From the NCBI GenBank assembly GCA_900316075.1, contig ONBT01000008.1, positions 664-64,663 of the forward strand: 64,000 nt of DNA, given 5' to 3'. The notes under the pieces are model-generated. The model was not told the origin of the DNA and made no database searches. It saw nothing but the letters and a program-made list of their open reading frames with translations. The position numbers were made by a program, and so were the translations under genes. The DNA comes from an uncultured Lachnospiraceae bacterium (GTDB lineage: Bacteria > Bacillota > Clostridia > Lachnospirales > Lachnospiraceae). Numbering within the stretch: the first letter of the stretch is position 1; every line of letters begins with the position of its first letter. Positions 448-32,360 of the stretch are shown here, piece after piece.

Positions 448-1860
448 ATGTCAGTGAGAGACATCCTTCCGAATGCATACGGAAGGAGATATTCATTGGT
501 CTTACCATTCTTTTCTGATACGTACACCTGTGAAGCGACACTCCGGGAGGGAGAAAACACTTCGGTGTACCTGGTCAGACACATCGTTCTTGGAGAGCTG
601 CGCGTCATGAAGCTTGTGCGGCGCTATGCCCGGTCCGGTCGGCCTGCGGGAAGCAGAAGTCCGGCGGACGGCAGAGTGCCCGCGGTGGATTCGGCGGAAA
701 GCCCTTCAGGTCAGATCTCAAACGAGGCGCAGATTCTTTCAGGCCTGCGCTATCCCGGAATTCCAGCATTGTATGATGCAGCAGAAGACGAAAATTACGT
801 CTGTCTTATCGAGGAGTATTTCCCGGGAAGCGGTCTCGAAAGCTATCTCACAGAGCATCTGCTCTCAGAGAAGGAAATCAGCCATATCCTGACCGCTGTC
901 TGCGGGATTCTTACCTACCTGCATACCCGGCCCGGCGGCCCGATCCTCTATCTGGACCTCAAGCCCGAACACATCATTCTGTCCGGGGACAGGGTCAGCC
1001 TCATCGACTACGGCATTTGCCGTAGCCTTCAAAACGCCCATTCGGGCAAAGCAATTCCCGTTTTTGGAACCAGAGACTGGTGTTCGCCGGAAGCGGCGGC
1101 CGGAGGAGAAGTTTCGGTCCGGAGCGATATCTACAGCCTTGGCCGGCTTGCAGAAGCTCTGTACGAAAGGTGCTCCGACGGCAGGAAAAGAAGCGTGTCC
1201 GCAGTGATTATGAAGTCGCTGGCCACGGAGCCTTCTGAACGCCAGGAGACGGTAGCCGACTGGAAAGACGCCTATCTTGCAGCTATTTCGCAGGAGAAGA
1301 GTCAAAGGGGATGTCTCTCTCAAACAGTAGCCGTTGCGGGAACGGAACGGGGTGCGGGCGCCACTCATGTGGCCCTGGCCCTGACCGTCTACCTGAACCG
1401 GACGGGACGGAAAGCCGTCTACATCAACCGTTCGGGGAGGGCCGTGACAAGGAATCTCGTCGAAAACGACAGTACGTTTTGCGAGAAGGCGGACGGACTC
1501 ATTTACCACGCAGGTTTTATCGGCCTTCCTGAGAGGGGACCGGCTGCGGAGGAGCCGGCGCTGCCGGATGCCGTGCGGGTCGTGGATTGCGGAACGGACC
1601 TGAAAAGAGCCTATGATGCGGACCTTGTAATATTTGTCGTGAGCTCCTGCCTCTGGAGGGCCGGACTCATTGACAGCCGGGAGCCGCTGGGGCAGGGGAC
1701 CGCCGTTGTCCTGAATCCCGCAAGAAGGGCCAGAGGCATACGCATGTCGAAGGCTCTGGGGCAGAAGGTATACGGTTTTCCGCAGGACCCGGATGCTTTC
1801 ACGCTGACGCACGAGAAGGAACGATTTTTTCGACGGGCTGAGAAGGGTCTTTTGTTTTGA
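448..1860 (+). CDS. Hanks-type Ser/Thr kinase-like domain fused to a degenerate MinD/ParA-like domain
   Basis: N-terminal half has RVMK (beta3 Lys), NEAQIL (alphaC Glu), a YLDLKPEHI catalytic loop, DYG and SPE. C-terminal ~190 aa has a MinD/ParA-like layout (VAVAGTERGAGATHVALAL, VVDCG, VVLNP), but the Walker A position lacks both lysines. Confidence 0.6.
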   Translation: MSVRDILPNAYGRRYSLVLPFFSDTYTCEATLREGENTSVYLVRHIVLGELRVMKLVRRYARSGRPAGSRSPADGRVPAVDSAESPSGQISNEAQILSGLRYPGIPALYDAAEDENYVCLIEEYFPGSGLESYLTEHLLSEKEISHILTAVCGILTYLHTRPGGPILYLDLKPEHIILSGDRVSLIDYGICRSLQNAHSGKAIPVFGTRDWCSPEAAAGGEVSVRSDIYSLGRLAEALYERCSDGRKRSVSAVIMKSLATEPSERQETVADWKDAYLAAISQEKSQRGCLSQTVAVAGTERGAGATHVALALTVYLNRTGRKAVYINRSGRAVTRNLVENDSTFCEKADGLIYHAGFIGLPERGPAAEEPALPDAVRVVDCGTDLKRAYDADLVIFVVSSCLWRAGLIDSREPLGQGTAVVLNPARRARGIRMSKALGQKVYGFPQDPDAFTLTHEKERFFRRAEKGLLF

Positions 1861-6486: not shown

Positions 6487-7065
6487 ATGAACAGAGTCAC
6501 AAGAATAATATTTGCCGTCGGGGAAGGGCTCTCCCGCGGACCCATGGCGGCGGCCCTTTTCGGGGAGCTATATGATAATAAGGACATAGAAGTCCTGTCC
6601 CGGGGCATCCATGTGGCCTTCGAGGAACCCCTGAATCCCAAGGCCGAAGTCGTCATGATCGGCAACGGGATGGACATCACGGGCTTCACGGCCAAGCCCC
6701 TCATGGACTATGAGATTACGGACCGGACTATGATCTTTACGATGGGGAAGAAGGACCGGGAAGAGATTCTCGAAAACTTCGAATCCGCCGGGGAGGAGAA
6801 TGTCCGTATCCTGTCCGAATATGTGGGGGATGAGCTGGAAATCATGGACCCCTACGGGGGAACCCTGCAGTCCTACGGTCTCTGCTTCGAACTCATCAAG
6901 ACCACGGTGGAGAAGCTGATTTCCCTGATTGAAACGGACGGCCTCTTCGTCCGGGAGCCCGGCCTAGTCGCAGAGACAGAAAAAACGGAAGAGGCAGAAG
7001 AACAGCCAGTGGCAGAGGCCAGCCCACAAGCTCTGATGGATCAGGAGCAGGCCCCGCTGCAGTAG
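6487..7065 (+). CDS. low-molecular-weight phosphatase family protein (YwlE-like), catalytic Cys replaced
   Basis: IIFAVGEGLSRGPMAAALF aligns to the LMW-PTP loop IIFVCTGNTCRSPMAEALF. A DPYGG motif is present and the position after sua5 matches B. subtilis ywlC-ywlE. Start taken at MNRVTRIIF. Confidence 0.7.
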   Translation: MNRVTRIIFAVGEGLSRGPMAAALFGELYDNKDIEVLSRGIHVAFEEPLNPKAEVVMIGNGMDITGFTAKPLMDYEITDRTMIFTMGKKDREEILENFESAGEENVRILSEYVGDELEIMDPYGGTLQSYGLCFELIKTTVEKLISLIETDGLFVREPGLVAETEKTEEAEEQPVAEASPQALMDQEQAPLQ

Positions 7066-7172
7066 AGGTGCAATGATTCAAAGCCGCAAACTCTGAAGCG
7101 TTACATATTGTTTTACAAATAGGGATATGGTATAGAAAAAAGGGAAATATAATAGCTCTCGGGGGAAGTGCA

Positions 7173-7658
7173 ATGAGCGGAAAGAGAACGGATTATATCA
7201 GCTGGGACGAGTATTTCATGGGGATTGCGTCGCTTTCGGGCATGCGCTCGAAGGACCCCCACACCCAGGTGGGGGCCTGCATCGTGAGCCCGGCGAACAA
7301 GATTCTGTCCATGGGCTATAACGGATTTCCCAGCGGGGTCAGCGACGACGACTTTCCCTGGAACCGGGACGGGGCCCCGCTGGAGAACAAGTACTTCTAC
7401 ACGACCCACGCGGAACTCAATGCCATCCTGAACTATCGGGGCGGGTCGCTCGAGGGGGCCAAGCTCTATGTTTCCCTCTTCCCCTGCAATGAGTGCGCGA
7501 AAGCCATTATTCAGTGCGGCATCCGGGAAATCATCTACGACAGCGACAAGTACGCGGAAACGCCTTCGGTCATTGCGTCGAAGCGCATGCTGGACGCGGC
7601 AGGGGTCCACTACCGCAAATACATTCACACCGGCAGGAAACTGGAAATCGAAGTATAG
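7173..7658 (+). CDS. comEB: dCMP (deoxycytidylate) deaminase
   Basis: Zinc-site motifs HAELNAI and PCNECAKAI; 161 aa. Confidence 0.85.
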   Translation: MSGKRTDYISWDEYFMGIASLSGMRSKDPHTQVGACIVSPANKILSMGYNGFPSGVSDDDFPWNRDGAPLENKYFYTTHAELNAILNYRGGSLEGAKLYVSLFPCNECAKAIIQCGIREIIYDSDKYAETPSVIASKRMLDAAGVHYRKYIHTGRKLEIEV

Positions 7659-19383: not shown

Positions 19384-21294
19384 ATGCCGGGACCCGGAAG
19401 AAGAAACGGCCGCAGGGCCAGCAAAGAAGACAGGGCGAAGGCGGGCGTAGTCATGAAGCGCCTGTTCGCATACCTCTTTAAACATTATTCTATTCAACTG
19501 ATCTTTGTATTCGTCGGCATCATCGTGTCCGTCCTGGCCAATGTCCAGGGGACCATGTTCATGCAGACCCTGATCGATTCCTACATCACGCCCATGCTGA
19601 AGGAGGGCTCCACGGACTTCGGCCCGTTGCTTTCTGCCATCGGCCGGGTGGCCTTGTTCTACTGCATCGGCATCGGCTCGACCCTGGCCTACAATTACAT
19701 CATGATCTATGTGTCCCAGGGGACTCTCCGGGACTTTCGTGACCAATTATTCTCAAAGATGGAGTCCCTGCCGATCCGGTATTTCGACACACATGCCCAC
19801 GGGGACATCATGTCGGTTTACACCAATGATATCGATACCCTGCGGCAGATGATCAGTCAGTCGATCCCGCAGATCATCAATGCGGGCTTCACGGTCGTCT
19901 CGGTGCTCGTGTCTATGTTCATCCTGAACGTGCCCCTGACCCTGATCACCCTGGCAATGACCGGCATCAATATCTTCGCCACGGCCAAGCTGGCCAGCCG
20001 GTCCGGGGTCAACTTCACCAAGCAGCAGAATGCTATCGCCAAGGTCAACGCCGAAATCGAAGAGACCATGAACGGGCAGAAGGTGGTCAAGGTCTTCAAC
20101 CACGAGGAGGAGACGACAGAAGACTTCCGCAAGCTGAACGACGACCTCTTCGAGGCGGCGAATGCGGCTAATACCTACGCGAACGTCCTGGGGCCCGTTA
20201 ACTCCCAGGTCGGCAACCTCTCTTATGTCATCGTCGCCATGGCCGGGGGAGCGCTCGCCCTGTCCGGAATGGCAGGATTGACCGTCGGAAAGCTCGCTTC
20301 CTTCCTGACTTTCAACCGCTCCTTCATCATGCCCATCATGCAGGTTTCCCAGCAGTTCAACTTCATCATCATGGCCATGGCGGGCTCCCAGCGGATCTTC
20401 GACCTCCTGGACCAGGAGCCGGAGACCGACGAGGGCTATGTCACCCTGGTGAACTCGACGAAGGACGAGGCCGGGAACATTGTGGAGAGTGCGGAAAGGA
20501 CCGGCCACTGGGCCTGGAAGCACTACCACGCCGCGGACAATACCACGACCTATCAGCCCCTGACCGGGGACGTGGTCTTCGACGACGTGAACTTCTCCTA
20601 CGTGCCTGAGAAGCAGATTCTGTACGATATCCGAATTCACGCAGAGCCGGGCCAGAAGATTGCCTTCGTCGGGGCCACCGGCGCCGGCAAGACGACCATC
20701 ACGAACCTCATCAACCGCTTCTACGACGTGGAAGACGGGAAGATCCGCTACGACGGCATCAATGTAAACAAGATCAAAAAGGACGACCTCCGCCACTCCC
20801 TGGGCATTGTCCTGCAGGACACCCACCTCTTCACCGGCACCGTCGCAGACAATATCCGCTTCGGCAAGGAGAACGCCACCGACGAGGAAGTCATTGCCGC
20901 AGCGAAACTGGCCAACGCCGACGGCTTCATCCGCCGCCTGCCCGACGGCTACGACACGGTCCTGACCGGAGACGGGGGCAGCCTGTCCCAGGGCCAGCGG
21001 CAGCTGCTTTCGATTGCAAGGGCCGCCATCGCCGACCCGCCAGTCCTGATTCTCGATGAGGCGACCAGCTCCATCGATACCCACACGGAGCGCTTGGTGC
21101 AGGAGGGCATGGACCGTCTGATGTCCGGCCGGACCACCTTCGTCATCGCTCATCGTCTGTCGACGATTCGCAATTCAGACTGCATCATGGTCCTGGACCA
21201 GGGCCGCATCATCGAGCGCGGAAGCCACGACGAACTCATGAAGCAGCAGGGCCGCTACTACCAGCTCTACACCGGCAAAGTTGTGAATGCGTGA
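19384..21294 (+). CDS. ABC transporter permease/ATP-binding protein (heterodimer partner)
   Basis: GATGAGKTT, LSQGQRQL and ILILDE motifs. Starts 1 nt after the preceding stop. Confidence 0.9.
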   Translation: MPGPGRRNGRRASKEDRAKAGVVMKRLFAYLFKHYSIQLIFVFVGIIVSVLANVQGTMFMQTLIDSYITPMLKEGSTDFGPLLSAIGRVALFYCIGIGSTLAYNYIMIYVSQGTLRDFRDQLFSKMESLPIRYFDTHAHGDIMSVYTNDIDTLRQMISQSIPQIINAGFTVVSVLVSMFILNVPLTLITLAMTGINIFATAKLASRSGVNFTKQQNAIAKVNAEIEETMNGQKVVKVFNHEEETTEDFRKLNDDLFEAANAANTYANVLGPVNSQVGNLSYVIVAMAGGALALSGMAGLTVGKLASFLTFNRSFIMPIMQVSQQFNFIIMAMAGSQRIFDLLDQEPETDEGYVTLVNSTKDEAGNIVESAERTGHWAWKHYHAADNTTTYQPLTGDVVFDDVNFSYVPEKQILYDIRIHAEPGQKIAFVGATGAGKTTITNLINRFYDVEDGKIRYDGINVNKIKKDDLRHSLGIVLQDTHLFTGTVADNIRFGKENATDEEVIAAAKLANADGFIRRLPDGYDTVLTGDGGSLSQGQRQLLSIARAAIADPPVLILDEATSSIDTHTERLVQEGMDRLMSGRTTFVIAHRLSTIRNSDCIMVLDQGRIIERGSHDELMKQQGRYYQLYTGKVVNA

Positions 21295-21357
21295 GGGAAG
21301 TGTTATTATAAGCCGGATTTCGGGTTCACAAAACTTTGCACAATAGGAAGGAAAATC

Positions 21358-21933
21358 ATGGAAAACTCTGTGTCCACGAACAAGAAGAAAATCCTCACGG
21401 TGAAGAACATCGCCCAGATCGCCCTGGCAGCGGCCATCATCTGTGTTCTCGGGCCCCTTTCGATTCCCATCGGCCCGGTCCCCGTCTCCCTGACCCCCTT
21501 CGCCGTATACCTTGCGGTCGTCGTGCTCGGTAAGTACCGGGGCACTATCGCCACCCTCGTATACCTGCTCATCGGCCTGGCCGGCGTGCCCGTATTCTCC
21601 GGCTTCTCCGGCGGCCCCGCAAAACTCTTCGGACCCACCGGCGGCTACCTCGTCACCTTCTTCATCACGGCCTTCATCGCCGGCATCTTCTGCGACAAGT
21701 TCGAGAAGTTCTGGCCCTGCTTCCTGGGATGTCTCCTGGGTCTGGCCGTCCTCTATTTCGTCGGCACCGTCTGGTTCATGGTCGGCATGTCCATGGCCGA
21801 CAAGGCAATGGGCCTCTGGGCATCCCTGATGGCCTGCGTCATCCCCTTCGTCCCCTTCGACTGCGTGAAGATCGCCCTGGCCATCATCCTGGGCAAGAAG
21901 ATCCGCGGCGCCCTGAACAAGGCGGATATCTGA
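21358..21933 (+). CDS. bioY: biotin transporter BioY
   Basis: 191-aa multi-TM protein with GPLSIPIGPVPVSLTPFAV and GPTGGYL motifs. Confidence 0.85.
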   Translation: MENSVSTNKKKILTVKNIAQIALAAAIICVLGPLSIPIGPVPVSLTPFAVYLAVVVLGKYRGTIATLVYLLIGLAGVPVFSGFSGGPAKLFGPTGGYLVTFFITAFIAGIFCDKFEKFWPCFLGCLLGLAVLYFVGTVWFMVGMSMADKAMGLWASLMACVIPFVPFDCVKIALAIILGKKIRGALNKADI

Positions 21934-21949
21934 AATTTCTGATTGCGGG

Positions 21950-21979
21950 TTGACAAGCCGCGCCGGAGGGTGCTACATT
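21950..21979 (+). promoter_or_regulatory. sigma-A type promoter with extended -10 (RNA copy 1)
   Basis: TTGACA (21950-55), 15-nt spacer, TGC, TACATT (21974-79). The same architecture is kept in copy 2. Confidence 0.55.
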
Positions 21980-21985
21980 GAAATC

Positions 21986-22196
21986 GCCAGGAGAGAAATC
22001 TCCTCCTGCCTCGGCAGGACACATCGCGTAAGGAGCGCGCGTTCGTAGAACTGGCTACGTTATAAACGATCCGGCACCCCACGAGGTGGCTTAACCTCGC
22101 ATGGAAGTGGAAGGCTTCACAATTGGGTGGGACGCACCTAAACGAAACCAGGAAATTACTTGTAAAAGACCTTGCTATTCGGCAGGGTCTTTTTCA
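21986..22196 (+). ncRNA. unclassified structured RNA, copy 1 (stand-alone, own promoter and terminator)
   Basis: Non-coding with several hairpins (CGCGU-AAGGA-GCGCG, CGUAG-AACUGG-CUACG, CGAGGU-GGCUUA-ACCUCG, GGUG-N5-CACC). Paralogous to the reverse complement of 22908-23073. Confidence 0.55.
22165..22196. terminator. rho-independent terminator shared by RNA copy 1 and the convergent nuclease-like ORF
   Basis: aaaagaccttgc-tattc-ggcagggtcttttt. The hairpin overlaps the 3' end of the minus-strand ORF. Confidence 0.7.
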
Positions 22197-22810
22197 TTGC
22201 AGAAAAGTTCTGCCAGCGGCTCGGGAAATGAAGGAAAAAGCTCATCGAAAAGACCCGTTTTGATTTCTATCAAAGGCCTTCTGTATAAGCCCTCAGGCTG
22301 GGATTTACTGCAAATCAATATCGTGCGGTAGCGTGCGGTAGTAAAATTCTCAATTGGACTGGGAATTAACGTAATAGGAAAATAGATATCATCAGTTTCA
22401 ATTGCAAACCCGAGAATTGCCTCTTTTCCATATGCATAGGAAAATTCAACATTCCTTGTGATTTTGTCCTTCGAGCCAATACTCATATACTTGGCATCCT
22501 TGAGGTTAAGGATTCGGGCACAGCAAGAGCACTTTTCTACAACGGTTGTACGTATGTGCTCCCGAGAGGGAAGGCAGTCTGAAATTATTAGCCGATCATC
22601 GAAAGCACGATCAAAGAATTCAACGGCTGAAAGTATGGGACTCGTCAGCCCGAGAAGGTGCATAAACTGGTGTTTTCTGAACCTGGCTTGGAACCAAAGG
22701 TACTGTGGGCTATTATTATTTTTCCCGATAAAAAGAAAGACCTGGTCCAACAATTGGTTGTATTGAACTGCTGCGGAATGAATGGCAGCGAGCAATTGCT
22801 CATCCGTCAT
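22175..22810 (-). CDS. PBECR-like (Barnase/EndoU/ColicinE5-D/RelE-like) putative nuclease
   Basis: The ORF is AT-richer than its flanks. The motif FQARFRKHQFMHLLGL and overall size recall PBECR4-type domains (from memory, not searched). Start uncertain: 22810 or 22828 preferred, because the track start at 22882 lies in a terminator hairpin. Confidence 0.5.
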   Translation of the reverse strand: MTDEQLLAAIHSAAVQYNQLLDQVFLFIGKNNNSPQYLWFQARFRKHQFMHLLGLTSPILSAVEFFDRAFDDRLIISDCLPSREHIRTTVVEKCSCCARILNLKDAKYMSIGSKDKITRNVEFSYAYGKEAILGFAIETDDIYFPITLIPSPIENFTTARYRTILICSKSQPEGLYRRPLIEIKTGLFDELFPSFPEPLAELFCNEKDPAE

Positions 22811-22857
22811 AGAAGTAGAAATGATCATAGACAGTACCCAAGAAAAGAAACTAGAAT

Positions 22858-22896
22858 TGAAAGAAAGAAAAGGCCTTGCCATGAAGCAAAGCCCTT
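22858..22896 (-). terminator. leader terminator/attenuator hairpin upstream of the nuclease-like ORF
   Basis: Minus-strand sequence GGGCUUUGC-UUCAU-GGCAAGGCC followed by UUUUCUUUCUUUC. It is positionally homologous to the copy-1 terminator. Confidence 0.6.
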
Positions 22897-23073
22897 ATAG
22901 ATAAGATACTGGTTTAGTTTAGGTGCTTGCCACCCATTTGAAAGCCTTCCACTTTCCCGCGAAGTCAAACTACTTCGTAGAGAGGATGCAGAGTTTTAAC
23001 GTAGCCAGTTCTACGAACGCGCGCTCCTTACGCGATGTGTCCTGCGGTGACAGGAAGAGATTTCTCCCTTGGC
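22858..23073 (-). ncRNA. unclassified structured RNA, copy 2 (5' leader of the nuclease-like ORF)
   Basis: The reverse complement aligns with copy 1 along its whole length. A 49-nt block is identical (22997-23045 versus 22014-22062). Confidence 0.5.
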
Positions 23074-23079
23074 ATCTTC

Positions 23080-23109
23080 AATCTACCACCCTCCTGTCGA
23101 TCCTGTCAA
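23080..23109 (-). promoter_or_regulatory. sigma-A type promoter with extended -10 (RNA copy 2 / nuclease leader)
   Basis: On the minus strand: TTGACA (23109-23104), 15-nt spacer, TGG, TAGATT (23085-23080). Confidence 0.55.
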
Positions 23110-23258
23110 TAACTCCCCGATTTTTTCCCAAAAATTTCATATTTTTTCAAATTCCCCCTAAACAAATATACGCAAATAGCCGAAATCCATTCTGAAAAGT
23201 ATCTTTATGTCCTTTTTTACAGGGTGTGGAAAAGACGGACAGAAAGAAGGAGCTATAT

Positions 23259-26200
23259 ATGTCTGGTAAACAGAACGGATTCTCGAAAATTCCTCTTGCG
23301 CGAAAGATAGAGGCCCTGGTCCTGACGGCGGTCACCGTCATTGCGTCGGCTTCCGTGGACTGGTCTTCCTTAACGGCAAGAGCGGAAGATACCTATCCGT
23401 ACGACGGTTCTCTGACTACTATGGTTGAGCTCGACCAGTCGAACCCGGTCATCAAGAGAGAGGTCATCGGAAAGGGCGGTAATCAGGCCGACAATACGCC
23501 CATGTATCTGGGAATCCACTCTGCCTACATGAATGTCCAGCTTTCAGAGGGGGCTACTGCCCACTATGAGGTGGCTATATATCAGAATTACGCAGATGAT
23601 GCGGATTATACGACCGCCACAAGTGTGCGCAGCGGAAACGAAATAGCTTCCGGTGATCTGACCCAATATGATAACGTGATTACTCTTTGGGACTGGCCGG
23701 ATGACAAGAACGCCCTTGTATACCTGGCGTCCGGCGAGAAGGCCACGATTGAAGTCACATTCTCCAATATTTCAGAAGGGGCCGTGATTTCATATGGTCA
23801 GGATTCAGAACAGAATTCTATAGCAGTCGGGACAAAGTATGAGAGTACTTTCTCGGATGCGGAGCTGGTTTCCGAAACCGGCCGTTCGAGCTATGTCACA
23901 GTTACGAACGGGGCGCCTATTGATTTCACGGGCGATTTCTCCCTGGCTCCGTCTTATAAGCGGAATATCTATTACAAGCTTTACGACAGTTCAGATAATA
24001 CGAATATCACGACGATTGCCAGCAGCTCCGACTATACAGCGACCTCCCATGCTTCTATAGCGGTAGATGACACACAAAAACTTCTGACGCCCGGTACCGA
24101 GTCAGGTGAAGATACCCTTCTGGTCTTTTCCGGCAACGATTCTTCGAAGTGGCTTAAGATTCCCGTGCGGATAGTTGCACCAAACATTAGTTATAGCAAT
24201 CTAACCTATAATGGAAATTCCGTTTCCGTGGTTACGCCGTCCTGCGGCCTTAATGTACTTACAGAAGGAACGGATTTCTTTGCGACCTATTCCGGTGAAG
24301 ACAGACAGGGGAATCCCTATAATGACGATGTAGCTTCCAATATCAGGAATGCCGGCGAATATACGGTAACCCTGTCCGGCGCGGCCGGAACAGACTATGA
24401 AGGCCTGACATATACTGAATCCTTTTCTATTGCTCCAAAGGATATAAATGAAGTAACTACCGGATCGGACATGCAGGTCGACCCGGCTGCGCTTTCAGTT
24501 ACCAATGCGGACGGAGCTTTGACTGATAACGGGCAGAACCTGATCAAGGATTATGACTACACGGTCGACAAGGTAGAGCGGGATGCGGCAGACAATGCGA
24601 AGTATTCCATCACGATTACCGGAAAGGGAAACTACACCGGGACCCGGGTTATCCAGTCGTCCAATTCGCTTAGCGGTACAGTGGATCTCAATACCCTTGT
24701 TAATAAGCTGATGCTTACGAAGGACAAAAATTCGTCAGAGGGGGCGATTTATGTCTTTGATGCAACGGCTCATAATGAACCCGGAATCTATTTTTACGAT
24801 AAAAACAACACACAGCTGAATCTAAAGCTGCACAATGATTACGAATACGCAATACGGGACAACAGCACACAGGCAGTCGTATATGACTCCGTGACGCCTT
24901 CGGCCATTACGTATGCCGGTGCTGTTAATGCAGGATACTATACAGTGGAAATCCGGGGACGGGGGAAGTATACCGGAACCATCAAATCGACCGACTTTTC
25001 AGATCAGGTCTTTCAGATTCAGCGGCGATCTCTAACCTACAACAATTTCATCGTGAAGATCAGTCCGGTTACATTCGTGGCTGATGACACCGTGCACCAG
25101 CCGACCAGTGTAACGGCAGAGTATCGTTACGGTACAGATGGCTCCAGCCGCTGGACCATGCGTCAGGGCATAGACTATGATTATGCTTTTGATCAAACGA
25201 AAGATGCGGGTACCTATGCGGTTCGGATTATTCCCCTGGAAACCGGAAATTTCTCCGGCGAGACCATAAACTTCTCAAACCATAAGCAGGCAGTGGCAGG
25301 AACATCAGTAGCCGATTTGGATGCCAATCCGGATTTGATTCATCCGGAATCCGTCGTCACATATGAGATTATTGCGTCTCTGGACAAGGCCGATGTCTGT
25401 CTGACAGACGGGAATACCTTCCCGGATGTCAATGTGGCCAATGTGGGAACCTCCTGGGTTTCCGCCTACTCGGCAGTCTATGATGGGAATGCAAAACAGC
25501 CTAAAGTTCAGGTGAAGATCGGGGCTCATGAACTGTCCCAGTACGTCAATGATACAACCACGCCCAATGCGGACTACAAAGTCATATATGATCCGACAAA
25601 AGAGACAAATGTAGGTGAGGCCAGCCTGATCATCCAGGGCATGAACAAGTTCGAGGGCCAGCCCATTCTGACGGTCAAATACACCATCACGCCGATTTCC
25701 CTGGCAGCCGGTGATCTGACGGTATCCAAAGAGAAGACATATGACCCTAATGGCAAGGCGGCTACTCTGGCGAACGGGGAATATTCTGTTTCTCATGACA
25801 AAAAATCTCTTTCAGAAGGAACGGACTTCGTTCTCGAGTATGAAAATAATACAGATCAAGGGGATGCTACGGTTACGGCCAAAGGTATCGGCAACTATAC
25901 CGGATCCGCAATCGCGGTTATGAAAATCAATCCCTTTGATTTTACGAAATCAACGGATTTTACAATTAAATCAATCCCGGATCAGTCCTATACCGGCAGC
26001 GAAATTAAACCCGATGAAAAGGGCTTGGTTGTCGTGCAATATAAAGGCTGGAAGACGCTGGAAAAGGATGTGGATTATAAGGTTACCTATGAGAAGGGAA
26101 CCAATATCAAGACCACAGATAAGGCAAAGGTTATTATTACAGGTCTTGGAAATTATACTGGCGTTAAATATACGACGTTCAGGATTAAGACCAAGAGCCT

Positions 26201-29200
26201 GCTGGATGGAGTAACCTATCGGATTGGAGGCACAAAGACCGGCACGCTTTCCGGAACGACCAATACCGGGTATACGGAAGAGTATACAGGTAAACCCAGC
26301 ACTCCCAATATTGAATTGAACAATGGTGCCCTGCGGAACGGAGTTGACTATACCGTTTCGACAAGTTCAGCCATCAGGGCCGGCAAACGGACCATTACAA
26401 TCACCGGTATCGGCAACTATGCCGGGACGGAAGCAAAACTGGTCTATGTCGTCATTCCTAAGGCATTGACCAGCGCGAAGGCTGTGCCGGTTGCATCCGG
26501 TGCCTCCACATCCGGAGCTATCCAGACCGGTACGGACGCCATCAAGCGCTACTACAAGGTTCAGATCGGAACGGGATCCAATGCAATTCCCCTGTCACCG
26601 GCTTCCATTACCTACAATGCAGACGGTACAGCAGAGTCTGTCACGGATTCCGGCGATTATACTTTCCAGTGGACGCAGCCTGACGGGACAGAACTCGCTG
26701 AAAATCAGATTCCGTCCATAGCAGGAGAGGGCTACACACTGAAGATCACCGGCCACGGGAATTACTCGGGAAGTGTTTCCGTCGACCGGGATGGCAGCAC
26801 AGCAAAGAACAAGCTCATGGTCGGCGCCTCAGTTGATGCGGTGGATGTCATCCATATCCTTGACCGCAGCGGTGATTCGGTACCTTATCTGGGCTCCAAT
26901 TTGCCTGCTGTTTACCTGGAATCAGGCAAGCTGACGTCGAAGACCTCCTCTGTAAATCCGTACAACCAGAATATTGTAGTCAGCGGCAACAGTATTGCAC
27001 TGGCAGGACCGGACTATGAGAACGGTCAGTACAAGAACGATACGGCGAAGGACTATACCGTCCATTTCGTTCCCGGTACAACAGCTTCAAAGGATGATGC
27101 GGCTGCAGAACTCAGCTCCCTGCCTGTCAATACACAGTTTAAGGTCCGTGTTTCTGCAGTGGCTGGCTCCAAGCTTTTCTTCGGCAGCCACCAGACGGAA
27201 CGTGTATTTACCGTATCAGCGACAGACCTTTCCGACTTCGGGAAGAAAATAACCGGCTATCGTGCCGGCCGGCTGACGGTATCCGACACAGCAGTAGCGG
27301 AGCCCTATGTCGTATCGAATGGCTCTGAAGTGTCTGCTGCGGCTATCTCCTACGAATACACCGGCAGCACCATCACGCCCAAGCTCAGTGTGACCTGCAC
27401 TCCGGTTACGCCGGACAGCAGCAAATTCAACGGGACTTTTGCGCCCATCAACCTCCTGTCCTACGCGACGGTCGCTCCGGCCACTATTCCGGCGGATGTA
27501 AAGAAAAATCAAAACTTCACCCTGACCGCCAATACAGGTTCCGGCTTCTCCGGCACTCTGACCATTCCGTACGAGGTGACGCAGAAAAAGATTACGGAGG
27601 ACATGATCAAGATGTCCCCGACGAGCGCGACCTACAATGGAAGCTCTCAGAAGAACGTCATCGATAGCGCTGTCACGGTCACATATAATAATAAACCCCT
27701 GACCAAGGATAAGGATTATACCCTCAGCTACTTCGAAGATGCGGACGGCAAGACATCGATTGATCCGAAGAGCGGTGACTTCACGAAGGCTCAGAGCATC
27801 TACATTCAGGTCTCTGGAACCGGAACGAATTTTGACACGACACCTGTCATGTATCCGGATCCTTTCGTTATTAAGGGGAAGAGTCTGTCCTCAGCAACCC
27901 TGACGCTGGGTGGAGACGTGACAAAACCGGCCGGCTCGGATATCTACTATGCCAAGTACAATGGCGGAAATGTCGTTTCTCCTACTGTCATTGTGACGGA
28001 CGGCAGCCGGACATTGTCCGGAACATTCAATAAATCGGATCCCGGCAAAGACTACTACTATGATCCGACGAGTGCAGACTCGCTGACCCAGACCGGCGGC
28101 GTTGGTCTGAAGACCGTCACCGTCAAAGGCCTCAACAATTACAGCGGTGATGCGGATCTGACGGAGAGCTTCTATGTATATGGAGAACTGTCAAAGGATG
28201 CATCTTTAGCAGGTTCATTTACAACTAGCGATGTAGCAGATTACAAAACATATGAACTTGATGAAAATGGCCATCTAATTACATCGGAAACCAAGACAGC
28301 CTTTGATTACACACAAGTTGAATTTAAACATGGGTCCGATATCTTGACCTATGGCACCCACTATACAGCATCTCTTAAGCGGGACGGGGTTTCGGTATCC
28401 GATATGTCTGTACCCGGTGTCTATACGATTACCTATACAGGCACAGGGATCCGCAATGGCTGCTATGGTACGGTGACGTTTAACAATATTACCGTCAAAG
28501 GTAATCTTGAGTATGCGACGATATCCGGGGTCAATGAGAATTACGATTTCAAAGGCAAGGATAATATTCCCGGCCCGACGAATATCGGTCAGATTACAGT
28601 AAAACTCGGTAACTATCCCATTCCTACCAAGGCGCTGAAGTTTACATCTTCATCGACGAATAATTATATTCCGACCGATGGAACAAAAGATGCGACAATC
28701 ACGGTAGAGGTCAATACCGACAACGACACGTACAAGAATCTTTATACAGGAAGTGTCACGGCCAACTACAATATCCGCTATGACCTGAGCAAAGTGACGA
28801 TTGCCAAAAAGTCGGGGGCGACGCTCTCTATGACAGATGATGCAGACACTTTGAAGTCAAAGATAGAAGTGACTTATAAGGGCCAGACGCTGGTTGAAAA
28901 TCAGGATTTCATATACAATCCGCAGCCGGAGTGGGTTTCCACCGGTTCTAATGCGACCCCTCGCCTTACCTTTACTCTCCAGCCGGACGCGAACCTCGAT
29001 CACTCCTACGGAAGTAAGTCCAGCACAGCTCTGACGGGAACCCGGAAACCGTTGAACAAGGATACGGCAAATGTATCCATGACTACTTCTCAGTCTACTA
29101 ACACCCAGGAGTACGATGGACAGGATCATTTCAATGACTTTGCCGGAAACGTCGAGATTACCTACGATGGTGAAACACTGAATCAGGGAACAGACTATGC

Positions 29201-32200
29201 GGTTCAGGTCACCAAGCAGGGAAGTTCCACATCTCTTAAGGCCGGTGATATGGTCAACGTCGGCACCTATGAGCTGAAGATTCGTGGTGTTGGCAACTAC
29301 AAGACAGATGCGGGAAAGGAACTGAAAGCGACATATACGATTACGTCCAGATCTTTGAAGGATAATTCCGCCACTATGGAATTGACAGATTCGGATGATA
29401 ATCAACTGTATTATTCAGGAACAGAACTGAACCCTGAATATACCGTAACTGATGATCTGGGGAACGTTCTGACAAAGGATGACTATACGATTAAGTATAC
29501 GGCCTCCGATTGGAATGCTGGAACAGAAGTAACAGTTACAGTTTCCGGTAAAAACAATTATAAGGATGATATTACTGACAAGTTCACAATTCGAAAGGTC
29601 AGTCTTGACAGTACGCTGATTAAGGCTACCTCGACTGCGGTTTACAATGGTCAGAAGCAAACGCCGACTGTTACTGTTCAACGTGTAGATGACGACGGGA
29701 CAGTTTTAGCAACCCTGAGTGATCCTACTGATTATAAGTTTACGCCTCCGACAGATCAGGACCTGACAAATGTGGGCAATCATACATGCTCGATTTCCGC
29801 AGGAACGAACAAGAACTATACGGGTACGAAGGACTTTGAATTCATTATCACCCCGCGTTCCCTTACAAGCAGTGGCATCGAAGTCATCCTCGACAATGCG
29901 GACGGCAAGTATGCCTATGCTAACGGCGACGCAGTAACGCCTACCGTTACCATCACAGATACAGGCCTTGCGACAGGCGGCACCACACCGCTTGTATCCG
30001 GTACAGACTACACAGCGACACCCGCCAACAATACCGTCTCTCATTCGAGCGATAATACTGACGGGGCAGCCCCGGTCGTACAGATCATAGGGAACGGAAA
30101 CTACGGTGGCGAAGTCGACAAGTATTTCCAGATCGGCACCGACCTATCAGACGCAACGGTAACACTGGATAAATCTACCCACGGCTATGACGGCGCGGCC
30201 TTCCGGCCGACGGTCACCGGTGTGACCCTGAATGGAAATGCGCTGACAGAGACGACCGACTACACCGGCCCGGCCTATACGACGACGGGCGGGGCAGTCC
30301 TGGCAGCCACAGAACCCACAGCCAAGGGTACTTACAAGGCAACCGTCACCGGGACGGGGGCTTACTTCGGTACGGCTTCTGCGGAGTATACGATTACGGC
30401 CCAGAATGCCAGCCGTGCAGACATTATAGTGGAATTCCAGAGCGATAGCGCTATGCAGACAGATGATAGTGGAGCGCCTTTCTGGTACTACACGGGTGAG
30501 GCCATCACGCCTGCGGTCAAAGTCTACTATTCGCCGGATGATGACACGAAGACGGAATTGACTGGCGGAGATGCAGACAGTACGACGGCGGACTATTACC
30601 TGACATATTCAAGCAATGTCAATGCCGGCGAAGAAGCCTCCATCACGGTCCACCTGATCAATAATTACGCGATCAGCGGGACGGAAGACCGGGTGGCCAC
30701 ATTTACAATCAAGCCGGTAGATATTAAAGATTTTTCGCTGACTCTCAATGGCGGCACAAAAGCTGACTTTGATGGCACGGCTCAGACGAAGGCCTTCACC
30801 CTTTCCGGAAAGAATCCGGCCGGGCAGACGGTTTCCAAGGTCTACAGCGGTACAGCCGTACAGATTGAAACCGAGGCAGCGAACGACGGCCTGAATGTCG
30901 ACTGGACGAACAATATCGCTCCCGGTACAGCCAACCTGCAGGTCAGCGGTACCGGCAACGGGAATTATACCGGTACGGCTCCTCTGGCAACGATGACCAT
31001 TGTCGGCGTGATCAGTGATGCAACGATAACGGTTGCCCGGTCCACGAATATCCAGGCGAAGGTGACGCCCAAAGTTACGGTCGACTTTAAGGACAAGTCC
31101 GGCACAAGCCATATCATCGATCCGGATTCCGGTTGGTACGATGTTACATATCGGGCGGATACCGGGAACTGGAAGACAGCGACAAAGGTCGAAGTCACTG
31201 TCAAGGGCGTCGAACCCCTGCTGGGTATGACTTATATCACCGGAACCAAGAAAGCCTATGGTGAACTGACGGATGAACCGACAGGGCTTTTCCTGACAGG
31301 GTACAATGCAACTTACCAGTACACCGGACAGCCGATCAGCCCTTCCGGCCTTGTGGTTTCAGGCAGTGCAATGCAGGGCGGCAATATATCCGTGGTCGGC
31401 TTTATTTACCATAGCGACAAGGATGACAGTGCCTGCATTATTCCCGGTACGGTAACTATGTCAGCCATTGTATCTTATACAGACAGTACCGGAACTACAA
31501 AGACGACGGAGGTTTCCGAAGACGCAAACGGCAATCAGGCAAAGTTCCGGATCCTGAAGCGTTCTCTGAAGTCCTGCGATATCATAGGACCTGTCGATGT
31601 ACGGTACAATGGCAGCGCCCAAGAGCCGGTCGTTTCCATCAGCGCAGACGGAAATCCGCTGACGCCCGGAAAGGATTATAAGATTACGGGCTATGTGAAC
31701 AATACAAAGCCCGGCACGGCTACAGTCTCTATTACGGCAGGCGACAACGGCTATGTTTCCGGTAAGACGTCAAAGACATTCACGATTTTTGTCGCCAATG
31801 TGACCGGTCTCACAGCGACATCCGTTTCCACGACTTCTGCGAAGATATCCTGGAGTGCGAGCCCGAGTGTTGACGGTTACCTCCTGACCTACGAGAACAC
31901 AAAGGGTGTCCAGAAGGTTCAGACAAAGAACCTGACCTATACGGTGACAGATCTTCCGACGGACGATTCAACCCAGGTGGCGGTTCAGGCCTTTGTAAAT
32001 GAAGGCAGCACCCCGACCTATTTTGGTGATCCGAATACGATATTCGCGAAAACCGCTTTGACGGCAACGACGACGACCGGAAGCTCTTCAGGCGGAAGGA
32101 ATACGGTCCGTTGGAGTACGGTTTCCGGAGCCAACGGGTATGAGATCTGGCGGGCGACGAGGAAGGATGGAACTTACGAATTGCTTACGACAGCCACGGC

Positions 32201-32360
32201 TTCGGCAACGAGCTATACGGACTCCCATGCGACGGTCGGGACGACTTATTACTACAAAGTTCGCGCTTACAAGATCAGTACGACAGCCGGGTCGACGTTC
32301 GGACAGAAGTACGGTTACAGTAATTTCTCGAATTCCGTTGCCATCATGACCGTGAACTGA
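23259..32360 (+). CDS. giant secreted surface protein with >20 MBG/YDG-type repeats and two C-terminal Fn3 domains
   Basis: Start at ATG 23259 with aaggag 7 nt upstream. Signal peptide ends at ..SLTARAED. Repeats of ~80-90 aa match the pattern Y.G....P.V......L..G.DY.V.Y..N...G.A.V.I.G.GNY.G. Fn3-like segments VTGLTATSVSTTSAKISWS and VRWSTVSGANGYEIWR. No C-terminal sorting signal. Confidence 0.85.
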   Translation: MSGKQNGFSKIPLARKIEALVLTAVTVIASASVDWSSLTARAEDTYPYDGSLTTMVELDQSNPVIKREVIGKGGNQADNTPMYLGIHSAYMNVQLSEGATAHYEVAIYQNYADDADYTTATSVRSGNEIASGDLTQYDNVITLWDWPDDKNALVYLASGEKATIEVTFSNISEGAVISYGQDSEQNSIAVGTKYESTFSDAELVSETGRSSYVTVTNGAPIDFTGDFSLAPSYKRNIYYKLYDSSDNTNITTIASSSDYTATSHASIAVDDTQKLLTPGTESGEDTLLVFSGNDSSKWLKIPVRIVAPNISYSNLTYNGNSVSVVTPSCGLNVLTEGTDFFATYSGEDRQGNPYNDDVASNIRNAGEYTVTLSGAAGTDYEGLTYTESFSIAPKDINEVTTGSDMQVDPAALSVTNADGALTDNGQNLIKDYDYTVDKVERDAADNAKYSITITGKGNYTGTRVIQSSNSLSGTVDLNTLVNKLMLTKDKNSSEGAIYVFDATAHNEPGIYFYDKNNTQLNLKLHNDYEYAIRDNSTQAVVYDSVTPSAITYAGAVNAGYYTVEIRGRGKYTGTIKSTDFSDQVFQIQRRSLTYNNFIVKISPVTFVADDTVHQPTSVTAEYRYGTDGSSRWTMRQGIDYDYAFDQTKDAGTYAVRIIPLETGNFSGETINFSNHKQAVAGTSVADLDANPDLIHPESVVTYEIIASLDKADVCLTDGNTFPDVNVANVGTSWVSAYSAVYDGNAKQPKVQVKIGAHELSQYVNDTTTPNADYKVIYDPTKETNVGEASLIIQGMNKFEGQPILTVKYTITPISLAAGDLTVSKEKTYDPNGKAATLANGEYSVSHDKKSLSEGTDFVLEYENNTDQGDATVTAKGIGNYTGSAIAVMKINPFDFTKSTDFTIKSIPDQSYTGSEIKPDEKGLVVVQYKGWKTLEKDVDYKVTYEKGTNIKTTDKAKVIITGLGNYTGVKYTTFRIKTKSLLDGVTYRIGGTKTGTLSGTTNTGYTEEYTGKPSTPNIELNNGALRNGVDYTVSTSSAIRAGKRTITITGIGNYAGTEAKLVYVVIPKALTSAKAVPVASGASTSGAIQTGTDAIKRYYKVQIGTGSNAIPLSPASITYNADGTAESVTDSGDYTFQWTQPDGTELAENQIPSIAGEGYTLKITGHGNYSGSVSVDRDGSTAKNKLMVGASVDAVDVIHILDRSGDSVPYLGSNLPAVYLESGKLTSKTSSVNPYNQNIVVSGNSIALAGPDYENGQYKNDTAKDYTVHFVPGTTASKDDAAAELSSLPVNTQFKVRVSAVAGSKLFFGSHQTERVFTVSATDLSDFGKKITGYRAGRLTVSDTAVAEPYVVSNGSEVSAAAISYEYTGSTITPKLSVTCTPVTPDSSKFNGTFAPINLLSYATVAPATIPADVKKNQNFTLTANTGSGFSGTLTIPYEVTQKKITEDMIKMSPTSATYNGSSQKNVIDSAVTVTYNNKPLTKDKDYTLSYFEDADGKTSIDPKSGDFTKAQSIYIQVSGTGTNFDTTPVMYPDPFVIKGKSLSSATLTLGGDVTKPAGSDIYYAKYNGGNVVSPTVIVTDGSRTLSGTFNKSDPGKDYYYDPTSADSLTQTGGVGLKTVTVKGLNNYSGDADLTESFYVYGELSKDASLAGSFTTSDVADYKTYELDENGHLITSETKTAFDYTQVEFKHGSDILTYGTHYTASLKRDGVSVSDMSVPGVYTITYTGTGIRNGCYGTVTFNNITVKGNLEYATISGVNENYDFKGKDNIPGPTNIGQITVKLGNYPIPTKALKFTSSSTNNYIPTDGTKDATITVEVNTDNDTYKNLYTGSVTANYNIRYDLSKVTIAKKSGATLSMTDDADTLKSKIEVTYKGQTLVENQDFIYNPQPEWVSTGSNATPRLTFTLQPDANLDHSYGSKSSTALTGTRKPLNKDTANVSMTTSQSTNTQEYDGQDHFNDFAGNVEITYDGETLNQGTDYAVQVTKQGSSTSLKAGDMVNVGTYELKIRGVGNYKTDAGKELKATYTITSRSLKDNSATMELTDSDDNQLYYSGTELNPEYTVTDDLGNVLTKDDYTIKYTASDWNAGTEVTVTVSGKNNYKDDITDKFTIRKVSLDSTLIKATSTAVYNGQKQTPTVTVQRVDDDGTVLATLSDPTDYKFTPPTDQDLTNVGNHTCSISAGTNKNYTGTKDFEFIITPRSLTSSGIEVILDNADGKYAYANGDAVTPTVTITDTGLATGGTTPLVSGTDYTATPANNTVSHSSDNTDGAAPVVQIIGNGNYGGEVDKYFQIGTDLSDATVTLDKSTHGYDGAAFRPTVTGVTLNGNALTETTDYTGPAYTTTGGAVLAATEPTAKGTYKATVTGTGAYFGTASAEYTITAQNASRADIIVEFQSDSAMQTDDSGAPFWYYTGEAITPAVKVYYSPDDDTKTELTGGDADSTTADYYLTYSSNVNAGEEASITVHLINNYAISGTEDRVATFTIKPVDIKDFSLTLNGGTKADFDGTAQTKAFTLSGKNPAGQTVSKVYSGTAVQIETEAANDGLNVDWTNNIAPGTANLQVSGTGNGNYTGTAPLATMTIVGVISDATITVARSTNIQAKVTPKVTVDFKDKSGTSHIIDPDSGWYDVTYRADTGNWKTATKVEVTVKGVEPLLGMTYITGTKKAYGELTDEPTGLFLTGYNATYQYTGQPISPSGLVVSGSAMQGGNISVVGFIYHSDKDDSACIIPGTVTMSAIVSYTDSTGTTKTTEVSEDANGNQAKFRILKRSLKSCDIIGPVDVRYNGSAQEPVVSISADGNPLTPGKDYKITGYVNNTKPGTATVSITAGDNGYVSGKTSKTFTIFVANVTGLTATSVSTTSAKISWSASPSVDGYLLTYENTKGVQKVQTKNLTYTVTDLPTDDSTQVAVQAFVNEGSTPTYFGDPNTIFAKTALTATTTTGSSSGGRNTVRWSTVSGANGYEIWRATRKDGTYELLTTATASATSYTDSHATVGTTYYYKVRAYKISTTAGSTFGQKYGYSNFSNSVAIMTVN

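Follow-up and report, generated by a model that had tools for sequence, protein, structure and literature searches.

A 64,000-nt stretch of DNA from an uncultured Lachnospiraceae bacterium (hereafter the window) encodes a PBECR4-family protein whose gene is led by a structured RNA, with a second copy of that RNA converging on the gene from its 3' side. Comparison with homologous loci leads us to regard this locus, with moderate confidence, as a type III-like module for toxin-antitoxin function or abortive infection whose antitoxin is a non-repeat RNA. A sequence-only reading of the window had guessed at a ToxIN-like, RNA-controlled cassette with a non-repeat RNA, and that guess is favored by the comparative data, namely the conserved layout (8/8 loci reached through the protein), a repeat-containing RNA in a sister subfamily, and orphan copies of the RNA in phage tRNA arrays; it is from these data that antitoxin activity is predicted.

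Architecture of the locus and its PBECR4 protein

The segments at 21950-22196 on the plus strand and 23109-22858 on the minus strand are inverted paralogues, as had been claimed, with 85% identity. MAFFT alignment of 21940-22200(+) with 22855-23120(-) gave a mean identity of 85% over ~260 nt, and the longest inverted-repeat arms (21950-22065 and 22994-23109; 116 nt, 84%) are accompanied by two more collinear arms. A search of the 64-kb window with a 43-nt probe from the identical block gave exactly two matches, compared to an expectation of 0 from shuffles. The insert between the copies is indeed AT-richer, with a GC content of 0.40-0.45 across 22150-22900 compared to 0.57-0.64 upstream.

Both copies have their own promoter, located at 21950-21979(+) for copy 1, where it begins 17 nt past the bioY stop (21933), and at 23080-23109(-) for copy 2. 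Each consists of TTGACA, an 18-nt spacer including TG, and either TACATT (copy 1) or TAGATT (copy 2), and each scores 10/12, in agreement with the near-consensus extended -10 promoters described previously; they are predicted to be constitutive and of the sigma-70 type. Copy 2 (22905-23074, minus strand), defined by covariance model R1, alignment and structure, leads the PBECR4 gene at its 5' end, and an intrinsic terminator at 22858-22896(-), with a 12-bp stem and a T-run, lies between it and the start of the ORF; a terminator scanner called this element at 22896-22869(-) plus the T-run. Copy 1 (21985-22155, plus strand), comprising hairpins P1-P7 and a pseudoknot, stands alone as a gene that converges on the ORF; it is followed by a hairpin with a flanking A-tract and T-run (22165-22196), recognized from sequence and fold. 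The scanner gave no call at this position, where the hairpin (22165-22194 plus T-run) is the terminal 13-bp helix of the MFE fold. A terminator had been proposed for each copy, and both proposals held on these grounds. The PBECR4 stop codon (22175-22177) sits within the copy-1 hairpin, so that this hairpin would serve both convergent transcripts, ending copy 1 and, on the opposite strand, the PBECR4 transcript, which fits the earlier description of copy 1 as a stand-alone convergent gene that stops at a shared hairpin.

Inverted repeats of ~250 bp around a compositionally distinct 0.7-kb insert could also be the termini of a small mobile element (MITE/transposon-like) whose RNA-like features are incidental, and in one related locus (L021), the entire twin unit is tandemly duplicated. 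We rejected this explanation as extremely improbable: a single copy is the rule among homologous loci, there is no transposase, the differences between the copies are compensatory in RNA helices, and each arm carries a promoter and a terminator in the order of an RNA gene.

The nuclease-like ORF had been likened to PBECR-type domains, and an HMM search with the ORF as listed (22175-22882, minus strand) matched Pfam PBECR4 (PF18813; E=7.2e-16, 59.5 bits against a gathering threshold of 27) over 171 of 188 model positions, placing it in that family. It is a single minus-strand ORF, as described, but its extent required correction. Because homologues align only from residue 19 (M19), the true start is the ATG at 22828 rather than 22882, giving a protein of 217 aa (22175-22828); the first 54 nt of the listed ORF fall in the terminator and leader. 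Residues F55, H57, L58 and P151 are invariant among aligned homologues. H57, in the FMHLLG motif, is unchanged in alignments of 37 and of 11 homologues and lies within a helix spanning residues 52-58 (AF2 model, pLDDT 95.9). PBECR domains have been described as predicted RNases with a catalytic His in an N-terminal helix (Iyer et al. 2017, PMC5512222), and the window protein, which exceeds the family threshold, retains this His.

Pfam gives PBECR4 only, which puts the protein outside the ToxN/AbiQ, CptN and TenpN families; PADLOC had no model for it, and NCBIfam and PHROGs returned nothing informative, while the libraries tried do recognize the ToxN and TenpIN proteins found at two homologous loci (L039 and L038, respectively). 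Searches of the PDB by protein sequence and by profile yielded no match, Foldseek comparison of the AF2 model with the PDB gave nothing below E=0.1 even though the pLDDT is 96, and a BFVD search retrieved two unnamed phage proteins only. Colicins D and E5 belong to the BECR fold class; in the PDB sequence, profile and Foldseek searches, the window protein matched neither these nor PrrC or RloC. Since no solved structure resembles the AF2 model, the assignment of PBECR4 as a nuclease, predicted to be a metal-independent BECR-fold endoRNase, derives entirely from Pfam and Iyer et al.

Fold and conservation of the RNA

Collection of homologues yielded 57 matches, 55 of them distinct sequences, from Lachnospiraceae MAGs, metagenomes and phage contigs. 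The collection patterns demanded the P7 hairpin and part of the tail, so the invariance of P7 and part of the family picture are biased by sampling. The RNA, ~170 nt in length, folds into seven hairpins (P1-P7), and pairing of the P4 loop with the 3' tail creates a pseudoknot that closes its 3' domain. Across the 55 distinct sequences, 96% of cells are paired, compared to 35-46% in slid controls, and double (compensatory) changes occur in 33 of 44 pairs, with 0 of 500 shuffles reaching the observed values. These results indicate that the RNA is a genuine family whose fold is under structural selection. The pseudoknot covaries although it was absent from the model that built the alignment: ACUGG/CCAGU (loop/tail) is replaced by GCCGA/UCGGC (L050), UCUAG/CUAGA (L053), GCUGA/UCAGC (L069, L090), GCCGG/CCGGC (L057) and GCUGG/CCAGC (L088). 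In the window, it is formed by the P4 loop CUGG (22051-22054) and 3' tail CCAG (22148-22151) of copy 1, and by 23005-23008 and 22909-22912 of copy 2. Model R1 scores copy 1 at 147.8 bits (E=5e-33) and copy 2 at 164.5 bits (E=5e-37), the MFE z-score of copy 1 is -4.28, and every helix is preserved in both copies, with the differences in P5 and P6 being compensatory.

Three other interpretations of conserved elements were considered and dropped. Pairing of a 5' GCCAG with the P4 loop in place of the pseudoknot was rejected, as the 5' end stays GCCAG or GCCAA while the loop changes to GCCGA, UCUAG or GCUGA. An 11-codon ORF (ATG CAC ... TGA) in the consensus of J4/5-P5 is absent in both window copies, shifts in length in L050, and has substitutions that are compensatory at the RNA level. 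A role as a CsrA sponge, suggested by GGA motifs in loops, was abandoned because the GGA-bearing P3 loop is not kept in phage copies.

The sequence-only reading had matched the RNA to no known family, and a search of Rfam 15 was negative both in 20500-24500 (E<=1) and, at the gathering threshold, across the window; the phage and type-B loci described below contained only tRNAs in the same search. BLASTN searches with the RNA found no match among GenBank phages or PLSDB plasmids. Viral contigs contained 0 matches to 27 nt taken from the 49-nt identical block, an empty result explained by the variability of the 5' domain. TRF detected no repeat in either window copy, which thus lacks the tandem repeats that define type III antitoxins. 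The 3' domain of the RNA is ~80% identical across loci whose proteins are only ~50% identical. Conservation of the RNA exceeding that of the protein is unusual for a co-evolving antitoxin and counts against the type III-like reading; it raises the possibility that the RNA additionally binds, or mimics, some conserved component of the cell.

Linkage of the RNA to PBECR4 genes

Whether homologous RNAs neighbor PBECR-like ORFs was addressed from both directions. Starting from the protein, all eight subfamily-A PBECR4 genes looked up (P0002, P0007, P0011, P0012, P0190, P0195, P0217 and P0136) have the RNA and terminator ~56 nt upstream; these proteins are 34-47% identical to the window protein, and their genomic neighborhoods are otherwise unrelated. 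Starting from the RNA, the order promoter, RNA, terminator, RBS, PBECR4 was found in the window and most loci, and an intact or contig-truncated PBECR4 ORF lies 55-65 nt past the RNA in at least 16 genome-scan copies and 8 distinct metagenome loci (9 contigs). Thus, the layout of type III loci, in which an RNA gene directly upstream shares the promoter and an intrinsic terminator intervenes, is conserved in homologous loci, and the description of copy 2 as the leader of the nuclease-like ORF extends to homologues.

In several loci (L030, L034, L036, L040, L043, L045, L080, L086, L088), PBECR4 is frameshifted or truncated behind an intact RNA (180-203 bits), and PBECR4 is likewise decayed in L047, where the RNA (167 bits) has an insertion in its 5' domain; such decay is of the kind expected for a toxin gene. 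Within this sample, every intact toxin gene was accompanied by the RNA. Window copy 1, L021 a/b and L075 are stand-alone: each has its own promoter and terminator and leads no ORF. The convergent twin is confined to the window lineage, L021 and L075, indicating that it is a lineage-specific extra copy; the proposed second copy in trans therefore does not generalize beyond these.

The position of the RNA, always 5' of the ORF and with a terminator after it, raises the question of whether it is purely a cis leader, i.e., a riboswitch or protein-dependent attenuator in which a ligand-binding, pseudoknotted aptamer gates read-through into PBECR4 with no antitoxin role in trans. The highly conserved junction nucleotides and pseudoknot are aptamer-like, and the P3 loop, near-invariant as UAAGGAGC in bacterial copies and missing from phage copies, suggests a function tied to the cis context. 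However, the ORF-less copies with their own promoter and terminator, the phage copies inside tRNA arrays, and the persistence of intact RNA where the ORF has decayed all argue against this explanation, which we consider rather unlikely. Moreover, the linker from the pseudoknot strand to the terminator is variable (15-25 nt), and inspection revealed no conserved antiterminator pairing; copies also occur outside 5' UTRs. Loop-loop kissing of P7 with the terminator was tried as an antiterminator and rejected, since it fits some loci (L017, L038) but not L018, L026, L082 or window copy 1.

The strict RNA-protein linkage (8/8) and the complex tertiary fold would also be expected if the RNA were a required cofactor, scaffold or guide without which PBECR4 is inactive, and guide and scaffold RNAs are similarly more conserved than their protein. 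This appears quite improbable, given that an activator of a host nuclease would be of no benefit to phages, several lineages of which nevertheless retain structurally intact orphans. The protein is often lost while the RNA is kept, a pattern that better fits an antidote, and the terminator design makes the RNA exceed the protein, as in type III systems.

The cassettes lie in conflict loci, alongside ToxN with 2.9 x 45-nt repeats (L039), TenpIN (L038), the type II genes RelB/YoeB and RelB/ParE, and PemK/SocA. One cassette is near MobC/relaxase, and another is flanked by hsdS and hsdR in a type I R-M operon, as prrC is. The upstream neighbors vary in nearly every locus (BioY, BacA, thymidine phosphorylase, hsdS, relaxase, acetyltransferase) with no fixed chromosomal site, implying that the RNA and PBECR4 move together as a unit. 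This variability bears on a further explanation, that the RNA has a cellular or phage role unrelated to PBECR4 (e.g., in tRNA metabolism or translation) and that PBECR4 cassettes merely insert beside it, as islands do at tRNA and tmRNA genes. Genes other than PBECR4 do follow the RNA, including the ToxIN locus in L039, a 403-aa ORF of no known family led by the RNA and terminator in L038, and a short ORF, excisionase-like as read by eye, in L032; its placement in tRNA arrays by phages and its high sequence conservation point the same way. On the other hand, the chromosomal site is not fixed, and the exact pattern, which would miss variants, was found in only ~31 of 185,579 species-representative genomes scanned, so the RNA appears to be accessory rather than housekeeping. 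A sister subfamily also couples PBECR4 to a different RNA in a like manner, and we judge an unrelated role to be improbable.

In that sister subfamily (type B; L032, L049, L092, L093, L095), PBECR4 is associated with a distinct conserved RNA of ~190 nt that holds about two tandem units of ~52-53 nt, and the promoter/terminator/RBS layout matches that of the window-like (type A) cassettes. The type-B layout with its repeat units corresponds to the classical type III arrangement. Model R1 gave weak matches (11-15 bits) at the correct position in 4/4 type-B loci, which is suggestive of homology between the two RNAs.

Phage copies, related systems and a proposed mechanism

Orphan copies of the RNA that retain the 3' pseudoknot domain are present in phage contigs (L012-L014, L057, L062, L066, L077), none of which carries a PBECR4 gene. 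These copies are embedded in tRNA arrays, each adjoining tRNA-Thr(UGU), and lie 2-6 nt (76 nt in L077) upstream of a tRNA, from which they are presumably freed by tRNA processing. The pseudo-ToxI of phage PhiTE is reportedly a phage-encoded mimic of an antitoxin, and the phages here similarly carry antitoxin-like RNA without a toxin. Unlike pseudo-ToxI, these are full structured genes in tRNA arrays, kept by several phage lineages rather than arising in escape mutants.

In the type III systems ToxIN, CptIN and TenpIN, the antitoxin RNAs consist of 2-5 tandem repeats of 34-45 nt (Blower et al. 2012, PMC3401426). The PBECR4 cassettes share with them the order of promoter, non-coding RNA, Rho-independent terminator and endoRNase-type toxin, a pseudoknotted RNA that persists when the toxin gene decays, and an occurrence on mobile elements and in defense-rich neighborhoods of Firmicutes, including Lachnospiraceae; in L038 and L039, the new RNA directly adjoins genuine TenpIN and ToxIN loci, respectively. 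They differ in that the RNA is one multi-hairpin fold of ~170 nt without tandem repeats and the toxin is PBECR4, of the BECR fold, rather than ToxN, CptN or TenpN. A structured, non-repeat small RNA upstream of the toxin, predicted here from sequence, is also found in AbiF/RCd22 of Clostridioides difficile, where the RNA acts in cis and trans and neutralizes the protein by direct binding (bioRxiv 10.1101/2025.04.15.648962), and in AvcID (PMC10511110), both of which are type III-like and tied to phage defense. The toxins of these systems are Abi_2/AbiD/F and a dCMP deaminase, respectively, in contrast with PBECR4. Their RNAs are also unrelated to the PBECR4-linked RNA, which matches nothing in Rfam, where the abiF motif is listed. 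PBECR domains themselves have been described as injected effectors of phages and conjugative elements and as solo proteins, with no mention of an associated RNA (Iyer et al. 2017, PMC5512222). Unlike the PBECR domains of polyvalent phage proteins, the solo protein here is chromosomal, located in bacterial conflict loci, and always paired with an upstream RNA. The RNA was previously uncatalogued, and its association with PBECR4 points to a new RNA-antitoxin (type III-like) family.

Based on this type III-like reading, the following mechanism can be proposed. A strong intrinsic terminator follows the RNA, ~30 nt ahead of the PBECR4 start, and the majority of transcripts would halt there, generating a large excess of RNA, while rare read-through would supply toxin mRNA. 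The RNA, chiefly its conserved 3' pseudoknot domain, would bind PBECR4 and hold it inactive, and when RNA synthesis stops (e.g., during phage-induced host shut-off), decay of the RNA would free the RNase. In the window lineage, the additional RNA gene, with its own promoter facing the toxin gene and a bidirectional terminator common to both, may raise the RNA:toxin ratio and block or oppose transcription from the 3' side. The phage orphans would act as antitoxin mimics that silence the host toxin. Given that there is no tandem repeat and that the toxin is not ToxN, CptN or TenpN, the classical mechanism of processing and cyclic assembly may not hold.

The location of the phage orphans beside tRNA-Thr(UGU) is reminiscent of phage tRNA-based counter-defense in the context of PrrC/RloC, and the PBECR4 cassette between hsdS and hsdR likewise resembles PrrC. 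A more specific and tentative version, unlikely as it stands, is that PBECR4 is an anticodon-type nuclease acting on tRNA-Thr(UGU) or another conserved RNA of translation, that it is inhibited by a substrate-mimicking pseudoknotted RNA, and that recoded gut phages counter it with one unit of decoy RNA and replacement tRNA-Thr(UGU). Substrate mimicry would account for the much stronger conservation of the RNA compared to the protein. If true, this would be the first case of a BECR-fold toxin restrained by a non-repeat RNA antitoxin that mimics its substrate, and phages would have a matching counter-measure.

The 55-sequence alignment, with its strong covariation including the pseudoknot, is enough to seed a new Rfam family, and the orphan copies beside tRNA-Thr(UGU) offer a testable lead to the toxin target and to phage counter-defense. 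If the RNA neutralizes PBECR4, the BECR fold and a single ~170-nt pseudoknotted RNA would join the small set of RNA-antitoxin systems, and solo PBECR4 proteins, now annotated as predicted nucleases only, would gain their first biological context. It would also explain an uncatalogued RNA that recurs in human and animal gut Lachnospiraceae and their phages.

Inverted RNA copies and the PBECR4 gene of the window

An inverted-repeat search and alignment of one copy against the other bore out a sequence-only reading that the flanks of this locus are inverted paralogues. The arms at 21950-22065 and 22994-23109 are 84% identical over 116 nt, with two further collinear continuations, and 21940-22200(+) aligned to reverse-complemented 22855-23120 is 85% identical over ~260 nt, including a long identical block. 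A 43-nt probe from this block occurred exactly twice in the window, and shuffled sequences are expected to contain none. Each copy, copy 1 at 21985-22155(+) and copy 2 at 22905-23074(-), has the extended -10 promoter previously proposed (TTGACA, an 18-nt spacer with a TG extension, and TACATT or TAGATT) and is closed by a GC-rich hairpin and T-run; the AT-richer insert was also evident, with GC content falling from ~0.6 to 0.40-0.45 between the copies. The copy-1 terminator hairpin contains the stop codon of the intervening ORF, with an A-tract on one side and a T-tract on the other, and its sequence suggests that it can be used on both strands.

The sole long ORF between the copies, 22175-22882(-), proved to be of the PBECR type, matching Pfam PBECR4 in a profile search (E=7e-16, above the gathering threshold). 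All homologues begin aligning at residue 19 of the listed ORF, indicating that the real start is the ATG at 22828 (217 aa), ~30 nt past the copy-2 terminator. A perfect 2 x 10-nt tandem repeat within the coding region, on the antisense strand (CGTGCGGTAG, 22322-22341), is probably incidental. The host belongs to a Lachnospiraceae MAG lineage, and the identical locus is present in at least 23 metagenome contigs. Its upstream neighbor is bioY, and directly downstream of the cassette lies a 3044-aa repetitive ORF (23226-32360), which varies by strain (3044-3085 aa), is split in some contigs, and is followed by a sortase in sister contigs; its product is probably a cell-wall-anchored surface protein.

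A structured RNA family upstream of PBECR4

Consistent with the claim that the RNA is unclassified, Rfam 15 returned no match at E<=1 in the region, and none at the gathering threshold across the whole window. DNA search patterns were derived from an 897-nt contig that opens with the 3' end of the RNA and a terminator and encodes a 44% identical PBECR4 homologue (P0002), and three collections were scanned. Viral contigs yielded 5 loci, representing 3 distinct phages; 185,579 species-representative genomes yielded 32 loci, of which 31 were genuine, almost all in Lachnospiraceae (Roseburia, Acetatifactor, Faecalimonas, Agathobacter, and Butyribacter among the genera); and metagenomes yielded 35, using a pattern with the pseudoknot strand unconstrained. 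A covariance model, R1, built on 32 sequences recovered 57 matches, 55 of them distinct.

On the R1-recovered alignment the RNA forms seven hairpins (P1-P7) and a pseudoknot that pairs the P4 loop with the 3' tail, and is devoid of repeats, in line with the long fold that had been proposed in place of short tandem repeats. The structure is 96% paired, versus 35-46% with partners slid, and the covariation check on homologues detected two-sided changes in 33 of 44 pairs, values reached by none of 500 shuffles. The pseudoknot covaries though it was absent from the model that made the alignment (loop/tail pairs ACUGG/CCAGU, GCCGA/UCGGC, UCUAG/CUAGA, GCUGA/UCAGC, GCCGG/CCGGC, and GCUGG/CCAGC). The invariance of P7 is partly a sampling artefact, because all search patterns required this hairpin. 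In both window copies every helix is preserved, and where P5 and P6 differ between the copies the changes are compensatory. Collectively, these comparative sequence data indicate a genuine and hitherto uncatalogued RNA family.

PBECR4 adjoins most bacterial copies of the RNA. Starting from the RNA, most copies are separated from a PBECR4 ORF 55-65 nt downstream by a linker of 15-25 nt, a terminator, and an RBS; starting from the protein, all eight subfamily-A proteins (the window kind) that were looked up have the RNA in that upstream position, and these share 34-47% identity with the window protein and lie in unrelated neighborhoods. Roughly twelve loci have a frameshift or truncation in the ORF yet retain an RNA scoring 167-203 bits, and no intact ORF without the RNA was seen among the collected loci.

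The sister, Pfam-core subfamily (565 protein matches) is closer to the Pfam model (E=4e-40 for L032) and carries a different conserved and likewise uncatalogued RNA of ~190 nt, type B, in the same promoter/terminator/RBS frame (L032 2050-2290(-), L049 2283-2470, L092, L093, and L095; alignment A6). Type B comprises a 5' hairpin and the element GGGUGNGCUGACACC-UUAAAAAUCUGACA along with two repeat units of ~52 nt, and R1 matches it only weakly (11-15 bits). Base pairing is possible between the GCUGA loop of its first hairpin and its 3' tail, UCAGC, both invariant in five of five sequences; this candidate interaction resembles the type-A pseudoknot.

Genomic settings and RNA copies without PBECR4

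Several cassettes lie among defense or toxin genes. In L050 and L051 (2257-3154) the cassette is inserted into a type I restriction-modification operon, with hsdS on one side and hsdR on the other, a position that the prrC anticodon nuclease takes in E. coli; further neighbors include MobC/relaxase, RelB/ParE, and PemK/SocA. Two RNA copies accompany genuine type III toxin-antitoxin loci: in L039 a ToxN locus with 2.9 x 45-nt repeats (916-1180(-)) lies directly against the RNA, and in L038 the RNA is preceded by a TenpIN locus that carries repeats too (6743-7450(-)) and, together with its terminator, stands ahead of a 403-aa ORF that belongs to no known family, in place of PBECR4.

Copies that lie convergently on the 3' side and bring a promoter and terminator of their own are confined to the high-GC lineage, namely the window, L021, and L075. 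L021 (3536-5961) holds two tandem twin cassettes, each with the RNA converging on a PBECR4 gene led by a second RNA, and the PBECR4 paralogues have diverged. Across the six high-GC copies, the P4-P5 junction has two variants, beginning AAACGAYCCGG and AACUNUGCA, and neither is tied to the leader or the 3' position.

The phage copies sit in tRNA arrays, on contigs without PBECR4, and suppressor tRNAs (anticodons cta and tca) in these arrays indicate that the phages are stop-codon-recoded. P4, P5-P7, and the pseudoknot are retained in these copies, whose 5' domain has diverged and is missing the bacterial UAAGGAGC loop. In every array the next downstream gene is tRNA-Thr(UGU) (L013 1366-1436, L062 3852-3922, L066 8628-8698, L057 821-893, and L077 1157-1231), 2-6 nt beyond the RNA, or 76 nt in L077. 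This adjacency may hint at the toxin target, or may simply be inherited synteny.

RNA 3' halves with a terminator also follow unrelated genes (L022 1073-1261, L037 2877-3015, and L041 6777-6926; neighbors are an ECF riboflavin S component, a RelB/YoeB pair, and a Butyribacter intestini locus), and the L041 type is found again in six contigs from metagenomes (L061, L067, L070, L073, L074, and L076). These fragments probably derive from lost cassettes and function today as terminators.

A putative RNA-antitoxin module

On evidence that is computational throughout, a type III-like toxin-antitoxin or abortive-infection module appears the best fit to the anatomy and distribution of the cassette, a reading we favor with some reserve. 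It is not a classical ToxIN, CptIN, or TenpIN member, because its RNA lacks repeats and its toxin family differs. The closest functional analogues are AbiF/RCd22 (bioRxiv 10.1101/2025.04.15.648962) and AvcID (PMC10511110), whose antitoxins are structured, non-repeat RNAs. Full-text literature searches for PBECR and PF18813 found no published link between PBECR4 and an RNA.

Loci whose proteins share ~50% identity share ~80% in the RNA 3' domain. Although amino-acid and nucleotide identities cannot be compared directly, this difference makes it conceivable that the RNA imitates a conserved cellular RNA, the substrate of the toxin; the phage tRNA-Thr(UGU) adjacency provides a lead in this direction. 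In the module we favor, the RNA would be over-produced and would neutralize the PBECR4 RNase. The convergent twin would serve as an additional antidote gene under its own promoter and would also bring the toxin transcript to an end, and the phage orphan RNAs would act as antitoxin mimics.
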